64,000 nucleotides of DNA from Escherichia coli (GTDB taxonomy: Bacteria; Pseudomonadota; Gammaproteobacteria; Enterobacterales; Enterobacteriaceae). Below the pieces are notes generated by a model. It did no database searches. It was not told the DNA's origin and worked only from the letters and a program-made list of their open reading frames with translations. Shown piece after piece: positions 8,852-22,191 of this stretch. The DNA lies in NCBI RefSeq assembly GCF_046105845.1, contig NZ_CP151004.1. One strand, 5' to 3'. Made by a program: the position numbers and the translations under genes. Each line of letters begins with the position of its first letter. The first letter of the stretch is position 1.

Positions 8852-10762
8852 GTGACGGACGATTTTGCACCAGACGGTCAGCTGGCGAAAGCGATACCAG
8901 GCTTTAAGCCGCGAGAACCACAGCGACAGATGGCGGTAGCCGTCACCCAGGCGATAGAAAAAGGCCAGCCGCTGGTGGTGGAAGCAGGAACCGGTACGGG
9001 CAAAACCTACGCTTACCTGGCTCCTGCGCTGCGGGCGAAAAAGAAAGTCATTATCTCGACCGGCTCAAAAGCGTTGCAGGATCAGCTCTACAGCCGCGAT
9101 TTGCCAACGGTCTCAAAGGCATTGAAATACACGGGCAATGTGGCGTTGCTGAAAGGGCGCTCAAACTACCTCTGCCTCGAACGTCTCGAACAGCAGGCGC
9201 TGGCGGGGGGCGATCTGCCGGTACAAATCTTAAGCGATGTGATCCTGCTGCGCTCCTGGTCTAATCAAACAGTCGATGGTGATATCAGCACCTGCGTCAG
9301 CGTGGCGGAAGATTCACAGGCGTGGCCGCTGGTCACCAGCACCAACGACAACTGTCTTGGCAGCGACTGCCCGATGTATAAAGATTGCTTTGTGGTCAAA
9401 GCACGTAAAAAAGCGATGGACGCCGATGTGGTGGTGGTAAACCATCATCTCTTTCTGGCGGATATGGTGGTTAAAGAGAGTGGATTTGGCGAGTTGATCC
9501 CGGAAGCGGACGTGATGATCTTCGACGAAGCCCACCAGCTACCGGACATTGCCAGCCAGTATTTTGGTCAGTCACTCTCCAGTCGACAACTGCTCGACCT
9601 GGCAAAAGACATCACCATCGCCTACCGCACCGAATTAAAAGACACCCAGCAGTTACAAAAGTGCGCTGACCGTCTTGCCCAGAGTGCGCAGGATTTTCGT
9701 CTGCAACTCGGTGAGCCAGGCTATCGCGGCAACCTGCGCGAACTGTTAGCCAATCCGCAAATTCAGCGGGCGTTTTTACTGCTCGATGACACTCTTGAAC
9801 TCTGTTACGACGTGGCGAAACTGTCGCTGGGGCGTTCCGCCTTGTTGGATGCGGCATTTGAGCGCGCCACGTTGTATCGCACACGGCTGAAACGGTTAAA
9901 AGAGATCAATCAGCCGGGCTACAGCTACTGGTACGAATGCACCTCACGCCATTTCACTCTCGCGCTTACACCACTGAGCGTGGCGGAGAAATTCAAAGAA
10001 TTAATGGAGCAAAAGCCCGGTAGCTGGATCTTTACCTCAGCAACGCTGTCGGTGAACGACGATCTGCATCATTTCACCTCGCGGCTTGGCATCGAACAGG
10101 CTGAGTCGTTGTTGTTGCCAAGCCCCTTTGATTACAGCCGCCAGGCGTTACTCTGTGTGCCGCGCAACCTGCCGCAAACCAATCAACCGGGTTCCGCACG
10201 TCGACTGGCGGCAATGCTGCGACCGATCATCGAAGCTAACAACGGTCGTTGTTTTATGCTTTGTACCTCGCACGCCATGATGCGCGATCTTGCCGAGCAG
10301 TTCCGCGCTACCATGACGCTTCCCGTTTTGTTGCAGGGGGAAACCAGCAAAGGGCAACTGTTGCAGCAATTTGTCAGCGCCGGTAACGCGCTTCTTGTGG
10401 CAACCAGCAGCTTCTGGGAAGGGGTGGACGTGCGTGGCGATACGCTGTCATTGGTGATTATCGACAAATTGCCGTTTACCTCACCGGATGATCCACTATT
10501 AAAAGCGCGCATGGAAGATTGCCGTTTGCGCGGAGGCGACCCGTTCGATGAAGTACAGCTGCCGGATGCGGTCATTACTCTCAAACAGGGGGTAGGGCGA
10601 CTGATTCGCGACGCCGACGATCGAGGGGTTTTGGTGATTTGCGACAATCGGCTGGTGATGCGCCCTTACGGCGCGACGTTTCTCGCCAGTCTGCCGCCCG
10701 CGCCGCGCACCCGTGACATTGCCCGTGCGGTTCGCTTCCTTGCGATACCATCCTCCAGGTAA
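8852..10762 (+). CDS. yoaA: DinG-family ATP-dependent DNA helicase (Fe-S, superfamily 2)
   Basis: 636-aa ORF with GTG start; Walker A GTGTGKT, DEAH box (DEAHQL) and a Cys cluster (CLGSDCPMYKDC). Confidence 0.9.
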   Translation: MTDDFAPDGQLAKAIPGFKPREPQRQMAVAVTQAIEKGQPLVVEAGTGTGKTYAYLAPALRAKKKVIISTGSKALQDQLYSRDLPTVSKALKYTGNVALLKGRSNYLCLERLEQQALAGGDLPVQILSDVILLRSWSNQTVDGDISTCVSVAEDSQAWPLVTSTNDNCLGSDCPMYKDCFVVKARKKAMDADVVVVNHHLFLADMVVKESGFGELIPEADVMIFDEAHQLPDIASQYFGQSLSSRQLLDLAKDITIAYRTELKDTQQLQKCADRLAQSAQDFRLQLGEPGYRGNLRELLANPQIQRAFLLLDDTLELCYDVAKLSLGRSALLDAAFERATLYRTRLKRLKEINQPGYSYWYECTSRHFTLALTPLSVAEKFKELMEQKPGSWIFTSATLSVNDDLHHFTSRLGIEQAESLLLPSPFDYSRQALLCVPRNLPQTNQPGSARRLAAMLRPIIEANNGRCFMLCTSHAMMRDLAEQFRATMTLPVLLQGETSKGQLLQQFVSAGNALLVATSSFWEGVDVRGDTLSLVIIDKLPFTSPDDPLLKARMEDCRLRGGDPFDEVQLPDAVITLKQGVGRLIRDADDRGVLVICDNRLVMRPYGATFLASLPPAPRTRDIARAVRFLAIPSSR

Positions 10763-14095: not shown

Positions 14096-15223
14096 TTGAA
14101 TTACCAAATGATTACCACGGACGATGCGCTGGCTTCTTTGTGTGAAGCCGTCCGTGCCTTTCCGGCGATAGCCCTGGATACTGAATTTGTTCGTACGCGC
14201 ACTTATTACCCGCAGCTGGGGTTGATTCAACTTTTCGATGGCGAGCATCTGGCGCTAATCGATCCACTCGGGATCACCGACTGGTCACCGCTGAAAGCGA
14301 TCCTGCGCGATCCGTCCATCACAAAATTTCTCCATGCAGGCAGTGAAGATCTGGAAGTGTTCCTCAATGTCTTTGGCGAATTACCACAACCCCTGATTGA
14401 CACGCAAATCCTTGCTGCCTTCTGCGGACGCCCGATGTCATGGGGTTTCGCTTCCATGGTGGAAGAGTATTCCGGCGTTACGCTGGACAAGAGTGAATCG
14501 CGCACCGACTGGCTGGCCAGACCGCTGACCGAACGTCAGTGTGAATACGCAGCGGCGGATGTCTGGTATCTGTTACCGATCACCGCAAAGCTTATGGTAG
14601 AAACGGAGGCCTCCGGCTGGCTACCTGCGGCGCTGGATGAATGCCGCCTGATGCAAATGCGTCGTCAGGAAGTCGTTGCTCCGGAAGATGCCTGGCGTGA
14701 TATCACCAATGCCTGGCAGTTACGCACACGCCAACTGGCCTGTCTGCAACTGTTAGCCGACTGGCGACTGCGCAAGGCTCGGGAGCGCGATCTGGCAGTG
14801 AACTTTGTCGTGCGTGAAGAGCATTTGTGGTCCGTAGCGCGTTATATGCCGGGAAGTTTAGGCGAACTGGACAGCCTGGGCTTATCCGGTAGCGAAATCC
14901 GCTTTCACGGTAAAACGCTGCTGGCGCTGGTGGAAAAAGCGCAGGCATTGCCGGAAGAGGCCTTACCGCAGCCGATGCTTAACCTGATGGACATGCCGGG
15001 TTATCGTAAAGCGTTTAAAGCGATTAAGTCGTTGATTACTGACGTGAGCGAAACGCACAAGATCAGCGCCGAATTGCTGGCATCGCGTCGGCAAATCAAC
15101 CAACTGCTGAACTGGCACTGGAAACTGAAACCGCAGAATAATTTGCCGGAGCTGATTTCCGGCTGGCGTGGTGAGCTGATGGCGGAAGCATTACACAATT
15201 TATTGCAGGAATATCCGCAGTAA
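14096..15223 (+). CDS. rnd: Ribonuclease D
   Basis: 375-aa ORF beginning MNYQMITTDDALASL; initiation codon is TTG. Confidence 0.9.
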   Translation: MNYQMITTDDALASLCEAVRAFPAIALDTEFVRTRTYYPQLGLIQLFDGEHLALIDPLGITDWSPLKAILRDPSITKFLHAGSEDLEVFLNVFGELPQPLIDTQILAAFCGRPMSWGFASMVEEYSGVTLDKSESRTDWLARPLTERQCEYAAADVWYLLPITAKLMVETEASGWLPAALDECRLMQMRRQEVVAPEDAWRDITNAWQLRTRQLACLQLLADWRLRKARERDLAVNFVVREEHLWSVARYMPGSLGELDSLGLSGSEIRFHGKTLLALVEKAQALPEEALPQPMLNLMDMPGYRKAFKAIKSLITDVSETHKISAELLASRRQINQLLNWHWKLKPQNNLPELISGWRGELMAEALHNLLQEYPQ

Positions 15224-15229
15224 AATCTT

Positions 15230-15272
15230 CCGAAGCCGGACTGGGCGCGCTCAGCGCCACATCCGGCTTCGG
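15230..15272. terminator. Large hairpin between convergent rnd and yeaX
   Basis: Perfect 11-bp arms CCGAAGCCGGA/TCCGGCTTCGG around a GC-rich loop; likely bidirectional terminator or REP-like element; coordinates approximate. Confidence 0.4.
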
Positions 15273-15276
15273 CAAA

Positions 15277-16242
15277 CTACAAATCCAACACCAGGCGTTT
15301 ACCCTTCGCGCGCGAACAACAGATCAACATACTTTGCTGGCTGGCACGCTCTTCATCGCTAAAATACTGATCCCGATGGTCAGCTTCACCTTCCAGTATT
15401 GCCGTTTCGCAGGTTCCGCATACCCCTTCACGACATAAACATTCCACTTTCGCTGCTTTATTATTTTCAATAACCTGCAAAATAGTCATCTCTTCCGGCA
15501 CCACAAACTCTTTTCCGGAACGGGCAAGCACCAGGGTAAATGCATCGCCGGTTTTGTCTTCAATCGCAAATTGTTCAAAGTGCAGCGTATCGGCGGCGAT
15601 GTCCAGACGCGCAGCTTCACTTCTTACCGCCTCATTTAGCGCCTCGGGGCCACAGGTATAAACATGTGTGCCAGGTTCGATATCCGCCAATAATCGCGCT
15701 AATTCCAGTCGTGTTCCGGTTGATGAATGATGCAAATGGACTTTCTCAGCCTGCGGATGCTGGACTAGCTCATCACGAAATGCGCAACTTTCTGGATTTC
15801 GCGAGCAGTAATGTAACTGCCAGTCGACGTCGCTGTGTTGCAGCTCTGCCATGTGCGACAGGAAAGGGGTGATACCAATGCCGCCCGCGATAAACAGATG
15901 CTTTCTGGCCGAGGGAATTAGCGCAAACAGATTATTAGGCGTCGAAATGGTCAACCGATCGCCTGCTTTCATCTGCTGATGCAAAAAGCGCGAACCACCG
16001 CGCGAGTTTTCTTCCAGTCGAACGGCAATCTGATAATGAGTTGTATCGAGCGGCGAACTCAGCAGTGAATACGCATTGCTGTACTGGTTATCACCATCGC
16101 TCATCTGCACAATGACGTGACTTCCTCCGGTAAATGCAGGTAATGGTTTGCCATCGGTTGCCACCAGCGTGAAGCGTTTCACCTGTTCGGTAAGCGGTTC
16201 CACCTGACTCACCTGTACTTCAAACATTTGATAGTCTGACAT
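15277..16242 (-). CDS. yeaX: Carnitine monooxygenase reductase subunit (ferredoxin-NAD(P) reductase with 2Fe-2S)
   Basis: 321-aa ORF; C-terminal plant-type ferredoxin Cys motif CREGVCGTCE. Confidence 0.9.
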   Translation of the reverse strand: MSDYQMFEVQVSQVEPLTEQVKRFTLVATDGKPLPAFTGGSHVIVQMSDGDNQYSNAYSLLSSPLDTTHYQIAVRLEENSRGGSRFLHQQMKAGDRLTISTPNNLFALIPSARKHLFIAGGIGITPFLSHMAELQHSDVDWQLHYCSRNPESCAFRDELVQHPQAEKVHLHHSSTGTRLELARLLADIEPGTHVYTCGPEALNEAVRSEAARLDIAADTLHFEQFAIEDKTGDAFTLVLARSGKEFVVPEEMTILQVIENNKAAKVECLCREGVCGTCETAILEGEADHRDQYFSDEERASQQSMLICCSRAKGKRLVLDL

Positions 16243-16297
16243 TGCTGTACTCCATCAAAAATCAGCCCGGCGGCGGAAAATACCGCCGCCGATGTCA

Positions 16298-17422
16298 TTA
16301 GTCCTTAAACACCTGCGCCAGCAGATTATGGAAGTGGGCGATACCATGTTCGGAAATTCCGCTACCGCTACTGTCGGCCATGATGCGCCCTTGACCACGA
16401 TAGCCACGCGATTTCAGCCCTTTCTGTACGCTTTCAACCAGACGTAAATCTTCCGGACGGAACACATCGCGATACCACTCAATCAGCGATTTTTGCTCGT
16501 CGGTTAACTCTTCATTGGTGAAGTAAATATCGTAGTTTTGCAGGGTAGTTTCAGAATCCACTGGGAATTCATAAATGACCGTCATCATCCCTTTGATCGG
16601 GGTGACGTTCAGCATCGTGCACGGCCACAGCCAGAAACCGTGGAATGCCGCATCCGTGCCCTCTTCGAATTTGAAAGACTGTTCGGACGGTTTGGCGAAA
16701 CCGTACTGCAGCGTCCAGTTACCGTGCATGGTGTGCCAGTAACGATCAACCTGTACGGAGTCGGAGAAACCTGGATGCGCCGGACCACAGTGATAGCACT
16801 CGAGATAGTTATCGACAATGTTCTTCCAGTTGGCAGGCGTGCGGGTGGTAAAGCGGGCAGCCAGTTTCAGGTCGTGGACTTCCGAGCAGGCTTCCAGCAC
16901 TTTCGCGCCCAGACCGGGTAACTGATCTTCTACGCTGGTGGCGTTAGGGTCCATGTTGATGAAGACGAATCCGGCATATTCTTCCAGAAGCACCGGAACC
17001 AGTTGCGCTTTGTCGCTATCGAAATTGGCGACGTTTTCGCAGTTACGTGCATGGGCCAGGTTGCCATCGAGTTTGAATGCCCAGGCATGATACGGGCAGG
17101 TAATCACATTTTTCGCTTTCCCTTCGCCGCTCAATAACTGATGACCACGGTGCGGACACACGTTATAGAACGCGCGCAAAACCTTATCACGACCGCGTAC
17201 CAGCACAATGCTTTCGCCAATGATCTCACGCGTCACATAATCATTGGCATTCGCCAGTTCGCTGCTGTGAGCGACGCAAATCCAGCTTTTGGCGAAGACG
17301 TTCTCTTTTTCGTGTTCAAAGGCGTTCTGATCGGTATAAAAACGGGCAGGAATGGTCCACGCCTCTTGCGGGTTAGCGCAAAAATTTTCGGGTAGTACAA
17401 AGTCAGGGCTCAGATTGCTCAT
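16298..17422 (-). CDS. yeaW: Carnitine monooxygenase oxygenase subunit (Rieske non-heme iron oxygenase)
   Basis: Track ORF 16298..17542; start moved to Met41 (MSNLSPDF) giving 374 aa; Rieske motif CPHRGH...CPYHAW. Confidence 0.9.
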   Translation of the reverse strand: MSNLSPDFVLPENFCANPQEAWTIPARFYTDQNAFEHEKENVFAKSWICVAHSSELANANDYVTREIIGESIVLVRGRDKVLRAFYNVCPHRGHQLLSGEGKAKNVITCPYHAWAFKLDGNLAHARNCENVANFDSDKAQLVPVLLEEYAGFVFINMDPNATSVEDQLPGLGAKVLEACSEVHDLKLAARFTTRTPANWKNIVDNYLECYHCGPAHPGFSDSVQVDRYWHTMHGNWTLQYGFAKPSEQSFKFEEGTDAAFHGFWLWPCTMLNVTPIKGMMTVIYEFPVDSETTLQNYDIYFTNEELTDEQKSLIEWYRDVFRPEDLRLVESVQKGLKSRGYRGQGRIMADSSGSGISEHGIAHFHNLLAQVFKD

Positions 17423-17453
17423 AGGGATACCTTTATCGTTAGGATGATGGCGC

Positions 17454-19064
17454 TCAGTTGTCGCCTTTGAATACGGTTCCCGCAGGGAGCACTGGCGTTT
17501 TTTCCAGGACTTCAACCGGTGTCTGCGGGAGATAATGTTCAACTTGATGAGCCGGAATGTCGGCGTAATCCTGTTTCAGCCAGCGAATAAATCCGCCGAC
17601 TTTCACCAGTAAAATGACGAGGAACGGAAGGGCTGTGAGTACGACGGTGGTTTTCATCGTTTCCAGCGACGCGCCAGTGAAAAGAATTGAAAGCGGGATC
17701 AGGGTAATTACCACGCACCAGAAAAGACGCAGCCCACGGTCAGGATCGTCACCTTCCTGGAGATTACGCGTACTGGTTGCCGCCATGGTGTAGGCCACCG
17801 CATCCATATGCGAGGCAAGGAAAATAATCATCACGCCCAGGTATGCGGCGAGGAATAATTTACCGGCTGGCAACGACATCAGAACTTGCTGCACAGCTGT
17901 CTCGCCGCCCAGTGTTTCCAGCACCTGTGGGACGTTGATTACGCCATTGATAAACTGGTGAATGGCATAGCTTTCCATTACGCCGAAGAAGAACCAGCAA
18001 CCGACGGTGCTGCCGAGGATCAGTCCCCAGATAACTTCTTTAATCTTACGACCGCGCGAAACGCGGGTGACAAACATTGCTACGCCAGGCGTGTATGAGA
18101 TCCACCACAGCCAGTAGAAAACGGTCCAGTTGCGGGTAAATGAACCATCGCCAAGCGGATCGGTGAATAAGCTCATTTGCAGGAAGTTTTGCGTGGTCAG
18201 GCCGATGGCATTGATGATGCTGTTGGTAATAAATTCGGTTGGACCGACAATCAGCACCAGTAATGGCAGCAGGAACGCGCCCCAGCCAACCATTTTGCTC
18301 AGACGTTGCAAACCGTTGTTGATACCAATCCACGAGCTTAGGCAAAAAATGCCGCCGGAAAGCAGGATCACAAATGCCTGCACGGTGAAGTTATCGGGTA
18401 AACCGGTCAGCGCGGAAAGCCCACGAGTAAAGGTTGCTGCGGTAACAACAAGGGAAATGGTCAGCGCACCGACAGTGGCGATCAGGAACATCAAATCGAC
18501 CAGTTTTCCCCACGGGCCTTGCGGGCGAACGCCGGTAATCGCGGCAATAATCCCGGAAAGACTCAGACCTTTGTTTTTCCGCACATGAAAGTGATAAGCC
18601 ATGATTAATGAGGCCAGCGTATAAGTTGCCCAGGCGCTGATGCCCCAGTGGAAGAAGGAGTAAGGGACGCTAAATTCGAGTGCCTGTTGTGAACGCGGTG
18701 CGATATTTAATCCAGGTGTTTGATAATAATAGGCCCATTCAGCAACCCCCCAATAAAGCGTAGAAGAACCTAAACCGGCACAAATAAACATAAACAGCCA
18801 GGAGAGCGTGCTGTATTCCGGTTTTCCTTCGCCAAGACGAATATTGCCGTATTTACTGGTGGCTAAATAAATCACCAGTCCCATTGCCAGCAAAACCAAT
18901 ACCTGTACGGCGGAACCTAACGTACGCGTAACAAAAGTGTATATTGCGTTGGCCGCGTCGGCCGATTGTTGTGGGAAAAGGCTTAATGCAGCTGCGATGA
19001 AAAGAATGGCCACCAGGCTGATGCTTATCAGCGGCACATCTTTTTTCTTAACATTGCTCATCAT
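17454..19064 (-). CDS. yeaV: BCCT-family transporter (betaine/carnitine/choline type)
   Basis: 536-aa polytopic ORF; AGGAGA 6 nt upstream of the ATG; resembles CaiT/BetT; exact annotated start not verified. Confidence 0.8.
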
Positions 19065-19314
19065 GAGTCATCTCCTGGGCATAAAAGCCCGTCTCTGGCT
19101 TTTGCCAGTTGTAATTATTTGCAGGGTAATGAGTTGCATATTGTGTTTAACAAATTGATTATTTGCATGTTACATAAATTAAACAATTAAGAATACGGAA
19201 AGCCATAAAACACGAAACGGAAACAATAAAAGGTGAAATGACGCAGGTTATTAACTGCAAAGAACGAATAAAAAAACCGCGTCAGTGACGCGGTTCAAAT
19301 AAACTGGTTTGACC

Positions 19315-20400
19315 TTAACGCAAAATAATTTTGCAAATCGCGTCGGCAACCTGTGGCGTGGTGGCATTGCCTTTCATATCAGGTGTTTTCGGCCCGTGAG
19401 CAATCACTTCTTCAATCGCGGCCAGAATACCGTTATGCGCTTGCTGGAAACGCTCATCGCCATTGCCGAGAAAATCGAGCATCATTGCACCGGCCCAAAT
19501 TGTGGCGATAGGGTTAGCAATGTTTTTCCCGTAGATATCCGGCGCGGAACCGTGGACTGGCTCGAAGAGCGACGGGAAAGTGCGTTCCGGATTCAGGTTG
19601 GCGGATGGGGCAATGCCAATGGTGCCGGTGCAGGCCGGGCCAAGATCGGAAAGGATATCGCCAAACAAATTGGACGCCACTACCACATCGAAGCGTTCCG
19701 GCTGCATCACAAAACGTGCGCAAAGAATGTCAATATGCTGCTTGTCCCAGCGGATCTCCGGGTAATTCTCAGCCATTGCTTCCACTCGCTCATCCCAGTA
19801 CGGCATGCTGATGGCTAAACCGTTCGATTTAGTGGCAGAAGTTAGCGTCTTACGTGGGCGGCTTTGTGCAAGTTCAAAGGCATAACGCAAAATGCGATCG
19901 ACACCACGACGCGTAAATACCGATTCCTGAATGACGACTTCATGCTCTGTACCTTCATTCACTCTACCGCCGAGCGAGGAATATTCTCCTTCGGTGTTTT
20001 CCCTGACCACGTAAAAATCGATGTCGCCAGGCTGTTTTCCCGCCAGCGGGCAGGGAACGCCAGGAAAGAGACGAACCGGGCGCAGGTTGACGTACTGGTC
20101 GAATTCACGACGAAATTTCAGCAGCGAACCCCACAACGAAATATGGTCCGGAACGGTGTCCGGCCAGCCGACGGCACCAAAATAGATGGCGTCGAAACGG
20201 CTAAGTTGCTCATGCCAGTCGTCCGGCATCATTTTACCGTGATGGCTGTAATACTCGCAGCTCGCCCACTCCATTTGCTCAAAACTCAAGGCGAAGCCCC
20301 AGCGCTCAGCGGCAGCCTGTAACACGCGAATCCCTTCAGGAAGGACTTCTTTGCCAATCCCGTCTCCCGGGATCGCAGCAATACGCATCGTTTTCATCAT
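19315..20400 (-). CDS. dmlA: D-malate dehydrogenase (decarboxylating), isocitrate/isopropylmalate dehydrogenase family
   Basis: 361-aa ORF; divergent from LysR regulator dmlR. Confidence 0.9.
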   Translation of the reverse strand: MMKTMRIAAIPGDGIGKEVLPEGIRVLQAAAERWGFALSFEQMEWASCEYYSHHGKMMPDDWHEQLSRFDAIYFGAVGWPDTVPDHISLWGSLLKFRREFDQYVNLRPVRLFPGVPCPLAGKQPGDIDFYVVRENTEGEYSSLGGRVNEGTEHEVVIQESVFTRRGVDRILRYAFELAQSRPRKTLTSATKSNGLAISMPYWDERVEAMAENYPEIRWDKQHIDILCARFVMQPERFDVVVASNLFGDILSDLGPACTGTIGIAPSANLNPERTFPSLFEPVHGSAPDIYGKNIANPIATIWAGAMMLDFLGNGDERFQQAHNGILAAIEEVIAHGPKTPDMKGNATTPQVADAICKIILR

Positions 20401-20502
20401 TGGGTTCTCACTTCCTGACCATCAAAATTGACAATACCCTCATCCTATAATTGACTGAAAAGGAATTAATCCCCGTAACTGGTGAAACATAAAACACGAA
20501 TC

Positions 20503-21426
20503 ATGAATAATTTACCGCTGCTGAACGATTTGCGCGTCTTTATGCTGGTGGCTCGCCGGGCTGGTTTTGCTGCCGTGGCGGAAGAACTGGGCGTTTCTCC
20601 GGCGTTCGTCAGCAAGCGCATCGCCTTGCTGGAGCAAACGCTAAACGTGGTGTTGTTACACCGCACCACCCGCCGCGTCACCATTACCGAAGAAGGAGAG
20701 CGGATTTATGAATGGGCGCAGCGGATTTTGCAGGATGTCGGTCAGATGATGGACGAACTTTCTGACGTGCGTCAGGTGCCACAGGGGATGCTGCGTATTA
20801 TCAGCAGCTTTGGTTTTGGACGACAGGTGGTGGCCCCGGCGTTATCAGCGCTGGCGAAGGCGTATCCGCAACTGGAATTACGTTTTGATGTGGAAGACCG
20901 GTTGGTCGATTTGGTCAATGAAGGTGTCGATCTCGATATTCGCATTGGCGATGATATCGCCCCTAATTTAATCGCCCGCAAACTGGCGACTAATTACCGC
21001 ATTCTCTGCGCGTCGCCGGAATTTATTTCGCAACATGGCGCGCCGAAACATTTAAGCGATCTTTCTGCATTGCCGTGCCTGGTCATTAAAGAGCGCGATC
21101 ATCCTTTTGGTGTCTGGCAATTACGCAATAAAGAAGGCCACCATGCGATTAAAGTTACCGGCCCACTGTCGTCTAATCATGGAGAAATTGTCCATCAGTG
21201 GTGTCTCGATGGGCAGGGGATTGCTCTGCGCTCCTGGTGGGATGTTAGCGAAAACATTGCCAGTGGTCATTTAGTACAAGTGCTACCGGAATATTACCAG
21301 CCAGCGAACGTCTGGGCCGTTTATGTTTCAAGGCTGGCGACGTCAGCGAAAGTGCGGATAACGGTAGAATTTTTACGCCAGTATTTTGCCGAGCACTACC
21401 CGAATTTTTCACTGGAGCATGCTTGA
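20503..21426 (+). CDS. dmlR: LysR-family transcriptional regulator of dmlA
   Basis: Track ORF starts at GTG 20482; start moved to ATG (MNNLPLLNDLRVFMLV) giving 307 aa; N-terminal HTH. Confidence 0.85.
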   Translation: MNNLPLLNDLRVFMLVARRAGFAAVAEELGVSPAFVSKRIALLEQTLNVVLLHRTTRRVTITEEGERIYEWAQRILQDVGQMMDELSDVRQVPQGMLRIISSFGFGRQVVAPALSALAKAYPQLELRFDVEDRLVDLVNEGVDLDIRIGDDIAPNLIARKLATNYRILCASPEFISQHGAPKHLSDLSALPCLVIKERDHPFGVWQLRNKEGHHAIKVTGPLSSNHGEIVHQWCLDGQGIALRSWWDVSENIASGHLVQVLPEYYQPANVWAVYVSRLATSAKVRITVEFLRQYFAEHYPNFSLEHA

Positions 21427-21483
21427 TTAATGATTCAATTATCGGGTTGATATCAGGTTAAAACCTGATTTTCTCCTTTCTAA

Positions 21484-22191
<708 letters not shown>

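Follow-up and report, generated by a model that had tools for sequence, protein, structure and literature searches.

The yeaVWX genes of an Escherichia coli chromosome: the known carnitine monooxygenase and its neighboring transporter as the distal part of a five-gene unit

Do a transporter gene, a Rieske oxygenase gene, and a reductase gene that lie side by side in Escherichia coli form a carnitine-cleaving system, and if so, how far does that system extend, and is it complete? Here, this question was addressed for the yeaV-yeaW-yeaX locus in a window of 64,000 nucleotides of E. coli DNA (contig NZ_CP151004.1 of assembly GCF_046105845.1), that is, the whole stretch of DNA that was analyzed and whose coordinates are used throughout. 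A sequence-only reading of the window had described the three genes as a carnitine monooxygenase of the CntA/CntB type with a dedicated importer. The evidence supports the identification of yeaVWX as the already characterized carnitine monooxygenase of E. coli together with a neighboring transporter, yielding trimethylamine from carnitine. With a probability that we put at about 0.88, the region encodes the aerobic system for carnitine cleavage in its E. coli form, and its three genes are the distal part of a five-gene unit. The gene names in RefSeq, the biochemistry of the enzyme, the crystal structures of its orthologue, and the five-gene comparison with Acinetobacter were already known. What is added here is descriptive: a residue check on the present allele, the wider unit, a dehydrogenase gene that Escherichia lacks and some Citrobacter have, and a three-state polymorphism.

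Three consecutive open reading frames (ORFs) on the minus strand occupy 15277-19064, at exactly the limits that had been claimed. The first, yeaV (17454-19064), encodes a full-length BCCT-family transporter of 536 aa, presumed to be a carnitine importer. It is followed after 31 nt by yeaW (cntA; 16298-17422), which encodes the 374-aa Rieske-type oxygenase subunit of carnitine monooxygenase, and after a further 55 nt by yeaX (cntB; 15277-16242), which encodes a 321-aa NADH-dependent reductase with flavin mononucleotide (FMN), NAD, and plant-type 2Fe-2S domains. For yeaW, the RefSeq start (MSNLSPD, at 17422) was used; the mechanical ORF reaches further upstream, to a TTG at 17542. By megablast against 5,426 complete RefSeq E. 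coli genomes, the 4.3-kb stretch that holds the cluster had a best identity of 98.7%, and the order yeaV-yeaW-yeaX-rnd was found, so annotated, in 4,368 of them. The RefSeq annotation of matching genomes names carnitine monooxygenase subunits YeaW and YeaX and the BCCT transporter YeaV. As a side observation, 13 kb of the window was 100% identical to a contig assembled from sequencing run ERR13115083. Given its distance from all 5,426 complete genomes, the window would derive from a lineage outside that set, or from a cryptic or Shigella-like relative.

The oxygenase carries most of the argument. In YeaW, a Rieske domain at residues 46-134 is followed by a catalytic domain of the Ring_hydroxyl_A family at residues 184-371, and the two motifs on which its assignment as a Rieske oxygenase had been based are both present, as VCPHRGH and TCPYHAW. 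Its sequence is 72.8% identical over 368 residues to CntA of A. baumannii (PDB 6Y8J; E value of 1.7e-196). The sequence-only reading had named a lack of active-site residues for binding of quaternary amines as what would refute its claim, and so the functional residues listed in the CntA structure paper (PMC7948474) were mapped onto YeaW through the alignment. All 18 of the 18 residues of CntA for catalysis, electron transfer, and the quaternary-amine pocket are kept in YeaW, so that every residue for binding and chemistry is in place and the claim stands. The Rieske ligands C89, H91, C109, and H112 (motif C-x-H ... C-x-x-H) align with C86, H88, C106, and H109 of CntA; the mononuclear iron would be held by H211, H216, and D325, with E208 as the bridging glutamate. 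Y206 corresponds to the residue that makes the pi-cation contact with the trimethylammonium group, C209 and C212 form the cysteine pair of group V, and CntA has the same residue at each of the pocket positions F219, Y228, F260, N272, Y297, Y317, and F321. Compared with YeaW of K-12, only 2 of 374 residues differ (R145L and P180S), neither of them at a known functional site.

The same evidence bears on the possibility that YeaW and YeaX are a generic aromatic ring-hydroxylating dioxygenase. Such an identity would fit the Pfam Ring_hydroxyl_A match and the weak matches to models of anthranilate and benzoate dioxygenases. However, the next solved relatives of YeaW after CntA, which are aromatic dioxygenases, match with E values of 1e-32 or weaker and over the N-terminal half only, and the aromatic dioxygenase models of NCBIfam fall well short of their cut-offs (102 bits versus 672 in one case). 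The group-V signature residues are present in YeaW, and on the coding strand of 15277-19064 there is neither a beta-subunit gene nor a separate ferredoxin gene, but solely yeaV, yeaW, and yeaX. As judged from this gene content, YeaW is an alpha-only oxygenase. By the structural matches, the conserved residues, and the published biochemistry of the enzyme, the aromatic dioxygenase explanation is effectively refuted.

The partner of YeaW had been described as a ferredoxin-reductase with a 2Fe-2S motif, and this description held. YeaX has the domain order FAD_binding_6 (residues 9-103), NAD_binding_1 (117-207), and Fer2 (240-313), and its cluster motif reads C270-x4-C275-x2-C278-x29-C308. The best solved relatives, all matching over the full length, are of the phthalate dioxygenase reductase type (6KBH, 6LAA, and 2PIA). 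Six of the 321 residues differ from YeaX of K-12, none of them at a known functional site. R271, K313, and D320, which are functionally relevant for activity with YeaW in the mutagenesis described in PMC9508527, are present in the window protein, as are the docking residues R83, K104, K117, and E330 of YeaW from the same work. As an observation in its own right, yeaX is the most diverged gene of the neighborhood in each comparison made. Its identity to the closest E. coli genome is 96.2%, versus 99.2-99.6% for rnd, yeaW, yeaV, dmlA, and dmlR; in E. albertii it is 83% versus 87-89% for the neighbors, and in Citrobacter 71% versus 78-83%. The reductase may thus be under relaxed constraint, or recombination may have taken place where the cluster ends.

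As reported previously, the YeaW (with its Rieske cluster and iron) and YeaX (with FMN and 2Fe-2S) proteins of E. coli have been purified, cleave carnitine, and function in mixed pairs with CntA and CntB (PMC9508527). The reaction established for them is L-carnitine + NADH + O2 -> trimethylamine + malic semialdehyde (PMC9508527). Together with the 72.8% identity to CntA, this interchangeability bears out the claim of a CntA/CntB-like architecture. Judged by the residues that the window proteins share with these enzymes, the activity of YeaW and YeaX as a carnitine monooxygenase is supported.

To see whether the two genes next upstream of yeaV belong to the cluster, orthologues of CntA were sought with a DNA pattern for the iron-site motif ECYHCGPAHP in one genome per species across 100,044 species, and the ORFs of the 120 motif loci returned were classed by blastp against five window proteins. 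The identities to YeaW were bimodal, with orthologues at 66-99% and all others at 45% or less; the window belongs to the first group. Among the high-identity loci with enough flanking sequence, the order lysR<>mdh-bcct-cntA-cntB recurred in Escherichia, Citrobacter, a Raoultella metagenome-assembled genome (MAG), Acinetobacter, Pseudomonas, and Cupriavidus, mdh being the gene for a malate dehydrogenase (MDH). Since the same order is kept across genera, the conserved unit comprises five genes, dmlR<>dmlA-yeaV-yeaW-yeaX, and all five stand together and in this order in the window, as in the Acinetobacter-type cluster. The orthology of the E. coli cluster to carR-mdh-bcct-hyd-cntA-msadh-cntB of Acinetobacter has been published independently (section 3.13 of PMC11353897).

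The two additional genes lie upstream of yeaV. dmlA (19315-20400, minus strand) encodes a decarboxylating D-malate dehydrogenase, the orthologue of the MDH of the Acinetobacter carnitine pathway. It matches TIGR02089 with 565 bits, its product is identical to DmlA of K-12, and its positional counterparts in the Acinetobacter, Pseudomonas, and Cupriavidus clusters are 70-81% identical to it. The Acinetobacter MDH has likewise been called an orthologue of E. coli DmlA (PMC11353897). dmlR (20503-21426, plus strand), which is divergent from dmlA, encodes a LysR-type regulator (Pfam HTH_1 and LysR_substrate) that is the orthologue of CarR of Acinetobacter and 46-65% identical to the divergent regulator of nonenteric cntA clusters. 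The sequence-only reading had taken the hairpin between rnd and yeaX (15230-15272, both strands, found by folding) as the boundary of the cluster. This hairpin is real and marks the distal edge, but the boundaries given for the cluster were too narrow, as dmlA and dmlR belong to it on the upstream side. The hairpin has 11-bp outer arms and an inner stem. Its folding energies are -36.9 kcal/mol (minus strand) and -34.5 kcal/mol (plus strand), at a z score of about -7 (0 of 200 shuffles folded as well), and it is probably a terminator for both convergent genes.

The presence of dmlA also helps in judging which substrate the enzyme meets in the cell. E. coli makes gamma-butyrobetaine from carnitine anaerobically via the cai genes, and the physiological substrate might thus be gamma-butyrobetaine or another quaternary amine rather than L-carnitine. 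In the literature, YeaW has been described as targeting gamma-butyrobetaine (PMC6200775), and the introduction of PMC9508527 ranks the activity of CntA orthologues, including that of E. coli, as high for carnitine as well as for gamma-butyrobetaine and as medium for glycine betaine. Against this stand the pocket residues of YeaW that contact carnitine, which are identical to those of CntA, and the conclusion of PMC6200775 that YeaW and CntA are the same enzyme. In addition, the adjacent dmlA fits D-malate, which on stereochemical grounds arises only from the hydroxylated substrate carnitine (PMC11353897). A substrate other than L-carnitine is therefore unlikely, and carnitine is retained as the substrate in what follows.

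For the transporter, the claim of a BCCT protein was confirmed over its whole length. YeaV matches Pfam BCCT end to end (E value of 1.9e-121) and the NCBIfam equivalog NF007412 over positions 1-536 of 536, with 1,031 bits against a cut-off of 647. Its nearest solved relatives are DddT (E value of 4e-100) and CaiT (8e-70), followed by the trimethylamine transporter 8ZW8 (3.9e-54) and proteins of the BetT/BetP type. The tryptophan box of CaiT, taken as the primary substrate box from PMC3442516, is kept: W140, W145, W320, W321, and Y324 of YeaV correspond to W142, W147, W323, W324, and Y327 of CaiT. The BCCT gene at the same position in Acinetobacter, Aci01347, is a characterized carnitine importer and is 53-54% identical to YeaV. 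When yeaV was overexpressed in E. coli, carnitine was among the metabolites depleted from serum (PMC10971958). In view of its family, the conserved synteny, and these weak metabolomics data, a role for YeaV as a dedicated carnitine importer is a reasonable inference.

Several observations weigh against the reading of the locus as a complete carnitine-cleavage system with its own importer, and the first of them concern this transporter. The metabolomics profile of yeaV is broad, including pantothenate and kynurenate (PMC10971958). At the position of Met331 of CaiT, YeaV has Val328, and at that of Gln330, it has Gly327. The coupling mode of YeaV thus cannot be read from CaiT, and as the methionine that takes the place of the Na1 cation beside the substrate carboxylate in CaiT-type antiporters is not kept, YeaV was not filed with them. 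DddT has a methionine at the position of Val328.

These features leave room for a YeaV that does not import carnitine, but exports trimethylamine, exchanges it for the substrate, or carries unrelated cargo. The trimethylamine transporter 8ZW8 among its relatives, a closest solved relative that is DddT rather than CaiT, the loss of Met331, and the link of yeaV to pantothenate and kynurenate all point in this direction. Nevertheless, the aromatic box for the trimethylammonium head group is fully kept, the positional orthologue in Acinetobacter imports carnitine, overexpression of yeaV lowers external carnitine, and the response to trimethylamine was unaltered in a yeaV knockout (PMC3884056). Another function is therefore improbable, and carnitine import remains the preferred assignment for YeaV.

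The next point against completeness is a missing step. By tblastn, no homologue of the malic-semialdehyde dehydrogenase (msadh) of Acinetobacter was found anywhere in the 64-kb window; with no aldehyde dehydrogenase there, the pathway is incomplete at this locus. At most orthologous loci outside Escherichia, cntA is adjoined by the gene for an aldehyde dehydrogenase that has 60-100% identity to that of Acinetobacter, and the gap between cntA and cntB is 1.4-1.7 kb. The gene was found by cntA in Citrobacter youngae, Citrobacter sp. Cu233 and R56, Xenorhabdus, Acinetobacter, and many Pseudomonas and Burkholderiaceae. It takes up the 1.4 kb that separate cntA from cntB in Citrobacter sp. Cu233 (CntA 93% identical to YeaW), and it starts just after cntA, at the end of the examined sequence, in C. 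youngae CCUG 30791 and Citrobacter sp. R56. Between cntA and cntB, no dehydrogenase was found in Escherichia (the window, K-12, E. albertii, and E69), Citrobacter sp. On2M, the Raoultella MAG, or some Pseudomonas. As the gene is present in some Citrobacter and not in others such as On2M, enterics have lost it, or acquired it, on more than one occasion. Because Escherichia lacks a cluster-borne enzyme, this step would be supplied from elsewhere; the published candidate is GabD, the product of a distant gene, with 62% identity to the dehydrogenase of Acinetobacter (PMC11353897). The genome called E69 here is CP089930.1 ("Escherichia coli strain E69"), whose identity to the window over the cluster is only about 89-96% and which is probably a cryptic Escherichia clade that serves as a separate species representative.

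Transcription of the cluster as one unit with dmlA also meets with difficulties. The intergenic region between dmlA and yeaV (19065-19314, minus strand) holds a terminator-like hairpin with a T-run 3' of dmlA (19274-19296), conserved AT-rich blocks, and a 13-mer discussed below. Owing to the hairpin, yeaVWX may not be cotranscribed with dmlA and may have a promoter of its own, and a consensus scan of the coding strand between dmlA and yeaV found no sigma-70 consensus promoter. The yeaV promoter is probably activator dependent. This intergenic region is 94.4% identical to that of E. albertii, versus 83-89% for the flanking genes.

A possible shared control element emerged from sequence comparison. 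The exact 13-mer TTCGTGTTTTATG occurs at 19204-19216, in the dmlA-yeaV region, and again at 20488-20500, in the divergent control region between dmlR and dmlA (20401-20502); for regions of these sizes, a shared 13-mer is expected by chance at roughly 1e-3 (a rough estimate). In E. albertii and three Citrobacter genomes, the two sites likewise contain its core, GTGTTTTAT. The element may be a shared operator, for example, a candidate binding site for DmlR, and its occurrence in both control regions would support a single DmlR regulon. Two other candidates were rejected. One T-N11-A dyad of the LysR-box type, TTGTTAAACACAA (19153-19141), lies upstream of yeaV, and the dmlR-dmlA region does not contain a matching one. 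The idea of a riboswitch or other structured leader upstream of yeaV was dismissed, as the 226-nt leader folds at a z score of only -1.1. A permissive Rfam search of 15000-21600 returned a single subthreshold match, anti-hemB, with 21.6 bits against a gathering threshold of 49.5, and this match lay on the dmlA terminator.

Within the cluster, the spacer between yeaW and yeaX forms a further hairpin on the minus strand (16267-16292, by folding), with 10 pairs, 9 of them G-C, followed by a T-run; the spacer folds at -28.4 kcal/mol (z score of -4.7). At the matching position, another hairpin, also with a T-run, occurs in Citrobacter sp. On2M and the Raoultella MAG. This suggests a conserved function, such as lowering the expression of the reductase relative to the oxygenase. 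The hairpin might set the ratio of the subunits by acting as a partial terminator, or be an element of mRNA processing or stability.

The last points against the reading come from laboratory strains. According to sections 3.13-3.14 of PMC11353897, E. coli BL21, B, and K-12 do not grow on carnitine. The same paper reports, in its account of E. coli, that BL21 extracts lack carnitine monooxygenase activity and that public expression data contain little cntA transcription (PMC11353897). With no growth of laboratory strains, no activity in BL21, and little transcription, an in vivo role in E. coli is unproven and is here inferred. The state of the locus in these strains therefore has to be considered alongside their phenotype.

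Three states were distinguished among the 5,426 complete genomes. At least 80% of the 4.3-kb cluster stretch was present in 4,368. Within it, a 225-bp segment (18937-19161, minus strand) that covers the first 43 codons of yeaV, including its start codon, together with the ribosome-binding site and 97 nt of DNA upstream was present in 2,930 genomes (about 54%), which have yeaV intact, as in the window. By subtraction, about 1,438 genomes (about 26%), including K-12 and B, have the cluster without this segment. The deletion was confirmed directly in K-12, by pairwise alignment, and in an E. coli B derivative. The deletion explains why YeaV of K-12 is annotated at 481 aa; the K-12/B allele lacks residues 1-55 and would fail NF007412 on coverage. 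In E. coli B, PGAP flags yeaV as a pseudogene without an N-terminus. BL21, a derivative of E. coli B, would hence belong to a lineage with the deletion.

In the remaining 1,058 genomes (about 20%, by subtraction), only the rnd end of the stretch matched; the five genes are lost as a unit in this fraction of E. coli genomes. In an O18:H1 strain, yeaX, yeaW, yeaV, and most of dmlA and dmlR have been removed by several deletions (corresponding to 15301-21258 of the window), and short remnants of dmlA and dmlR (9225-9640 of that locus) lie between rnd and leuE. The rnd/yeaX hairpin still stands beside rnd in genomes without the cluster.

An alternative is that the enzyme is as described but that in Escherichia the cluster is no growth pathway: poorly expressed and without msadh, it might only trim intracellular pools of carnitine or betaine, or be a decaying remnant en route to loss. 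Both msadh and the hydrolase gene are lacking in Escherichia, while msadh lies between cntA and cntB in other genera; yeaV is 5'-truncated in about 26% of complete E. coli genomes, and all five genes are gone, through several deletions, in about 20%. The laboratory strains show neither growth nor activity, and the authors of PMC11353897, in their discussion of E. coli, put forward such a reading themselves. On the other hand, the five genes are intact in the window and in about 54% of genomes, YeaW is strongly constrained (98% identical in protein to that of E. albertii), and the region upstream of yeaV is better conserved than the flanking coding DNA. Moreover, the strains tested for growth belong to the lineages with the yeaV deletion (K-12 and B). 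SE11, which is listed in PMC6200775 (citing Zhu 2014) as forming trimethylamine from carnitine, carries an intact yeaV gene of 1,611 nt. The correspondence between intact yeaV and the trimethylamine phenotype is a correlation over very few strains and no demonstration. In the same context, a table entry that gives K-12 as trimethylamine positive was not counted, as its source used K-12 only as a DNA standard for quantitative PCR. We regard a cluster without a growth function as a serious possibility, although one that falls well short of even odds.

The opposite proposal starts from the preferred reading of a carnitine-cleavage system. On this proposal, the intact allele, with full-length yeaV and the 225-bp segment, makes the system work in vivo, the failure of BL21, B, and K-12 reflects a lineage-specific deletion and not the species, dmlA and yeaVWX form one DmlR regulon, and the dehydrogenase step comes from elsewhere, for example, from GabD. 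Taken as a whole, this combination is tentative and rather doubtful.

If the preferred reading is followed through, the pathway would run as follows. YeaV, a 12-helix BCCT protein, would import L-carnitine and probably gamma-butyrobetaine as well. YeaX would move two electrons from NADH via FMN to its plant-type 2Fe-2S cluster, as demonstrated for the near-identical E. coli protein. The electrons would pass to the Rieske cluster of trimeric YeaW and then, across the subunit interface via Glu208, to the iron at His211, His216, and Asp325; this route was established in CntA, and its residues are kept in the window protein. At the iron, O2 would be activated, and carnitine, with its trimethylammonium group against Tyr206, would be hydroxylated at C4. 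The C-N bond would then break to give trimethylamine and malic semialdehyde, an outcome known from CntA and from E. coli YeaW/YeaX. An aldehyde dehydrogenase encoded elsewhere, with GabD as the published candidate, would presumably oxidize the semialdehyde to D-malate. Finally, the adjacent DmlA, under the control of DmlR, would decarboxylate D-malate to pyruvate; the activity of this enzyme is known, and its link to carnitine in E. coli is conjectural. In Acinetobacter, the route from carnitine through malic semialdehyde and then D-malate to pyruvate has been reconstituted (PMC11353897).

Few bacterial routes that lead from carnitine in the diet to trimethylamine are known, and carnitine monooxygenase is among them. 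Trimethylamine is the precursor of trimethylamine N-oxide, a compound with a link to atherosclerosis, and in the human gut cntA is carried mainly by E. coli (PMC5433236). The presence of cntA alone would over- or misstate the capacity of a strain, as the cluster is intact in about 54% of genomes, has a 5'-truncated transporter gene in about 26%, and is absent from about 20%. In addition, Escherichia lacks the dehydrogenase that makes this a growth pathway in other genera. Thus, surveys of the trimethylamine potential of the gut and experiments with laboratory strains should account for the state of the allele. In general, the enzyme is well characterized and the window adds no new kind of biology.

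Compared with known systems, the window stands closest to the YeaW/YeaX enzymes of E. coli itself (K-12/DH10B, SE11, and KO11FL; EC 1.14.13.239). These are the same genes at the same chromosomal site, and the window copy is an allelic variant only, differing from K-12 and B in its intact transporter gene. The Citrobacter clusters (C. youngae CCUG 30791, sp. Cu233, and sp. R56) have CntA proteins 93-94% identical to YeaW and the order lysR<>mdh-bcct-cntA. These three carry msadh downstream of cntA, 60-62% identical to the Acinetobacter enzyme, whereas Escherichia has the 55-nt hairpin spacer at this place.

Among other quaternary-amine systems, GbcA/GbcB and Stc2 of group V have in common with YeaW the fold, the cysteine pair next to the iron site, and the class of substrate. 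GbcA is the best NCBIfam match of YeaW, yet with 153.8 bits against a cut-off of 670 and over the N-terminal half only, and oxygenases of the GbcA/Stc2 kind are at most 45% identical to YeaW and lack bcct and mdh neighbors. For the transporter, the L-carnitine/gamma-butyrobetaine antiporter CaiT belongs to the same BCCT family, matches YeaV over nearly the full length, and has the five-residue aromatic box in common with it. However, DddT is nearer to YeaV, and CaiT is tied to the anaerobic cai operon, whereas YeaV is tied to an aerobic oxygenase.

The cluster of Acinetobacter baumannii is the fullest parallel. All five common genes are orthologous and in matching order, and the cofactors and catalytic residues are identical. 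The identities computed here were about 47-50% for the regulator, 71-72% for MDH, 54% for BCCT, 72% for CntA, and 50% for CntB, alongside published values of 45% (CarR), 72% (MDH), 56% (BCCT), 72% (CntA), and 52% (CntB) (PMC11353897). Acinetobacter has hyd, an alpha/beta hydrolase gene, between bcct and cntA, as well as msadh, whereas Escherichia has neither. The spacer between dmlA and yeaV is 250 nt with a terminator-like hairpin in Escherichia versus an estimated 59-78 nt in Acinetobacter, and growth on carnitine has been demonstrated for Acinetobacter but not for E. coli.

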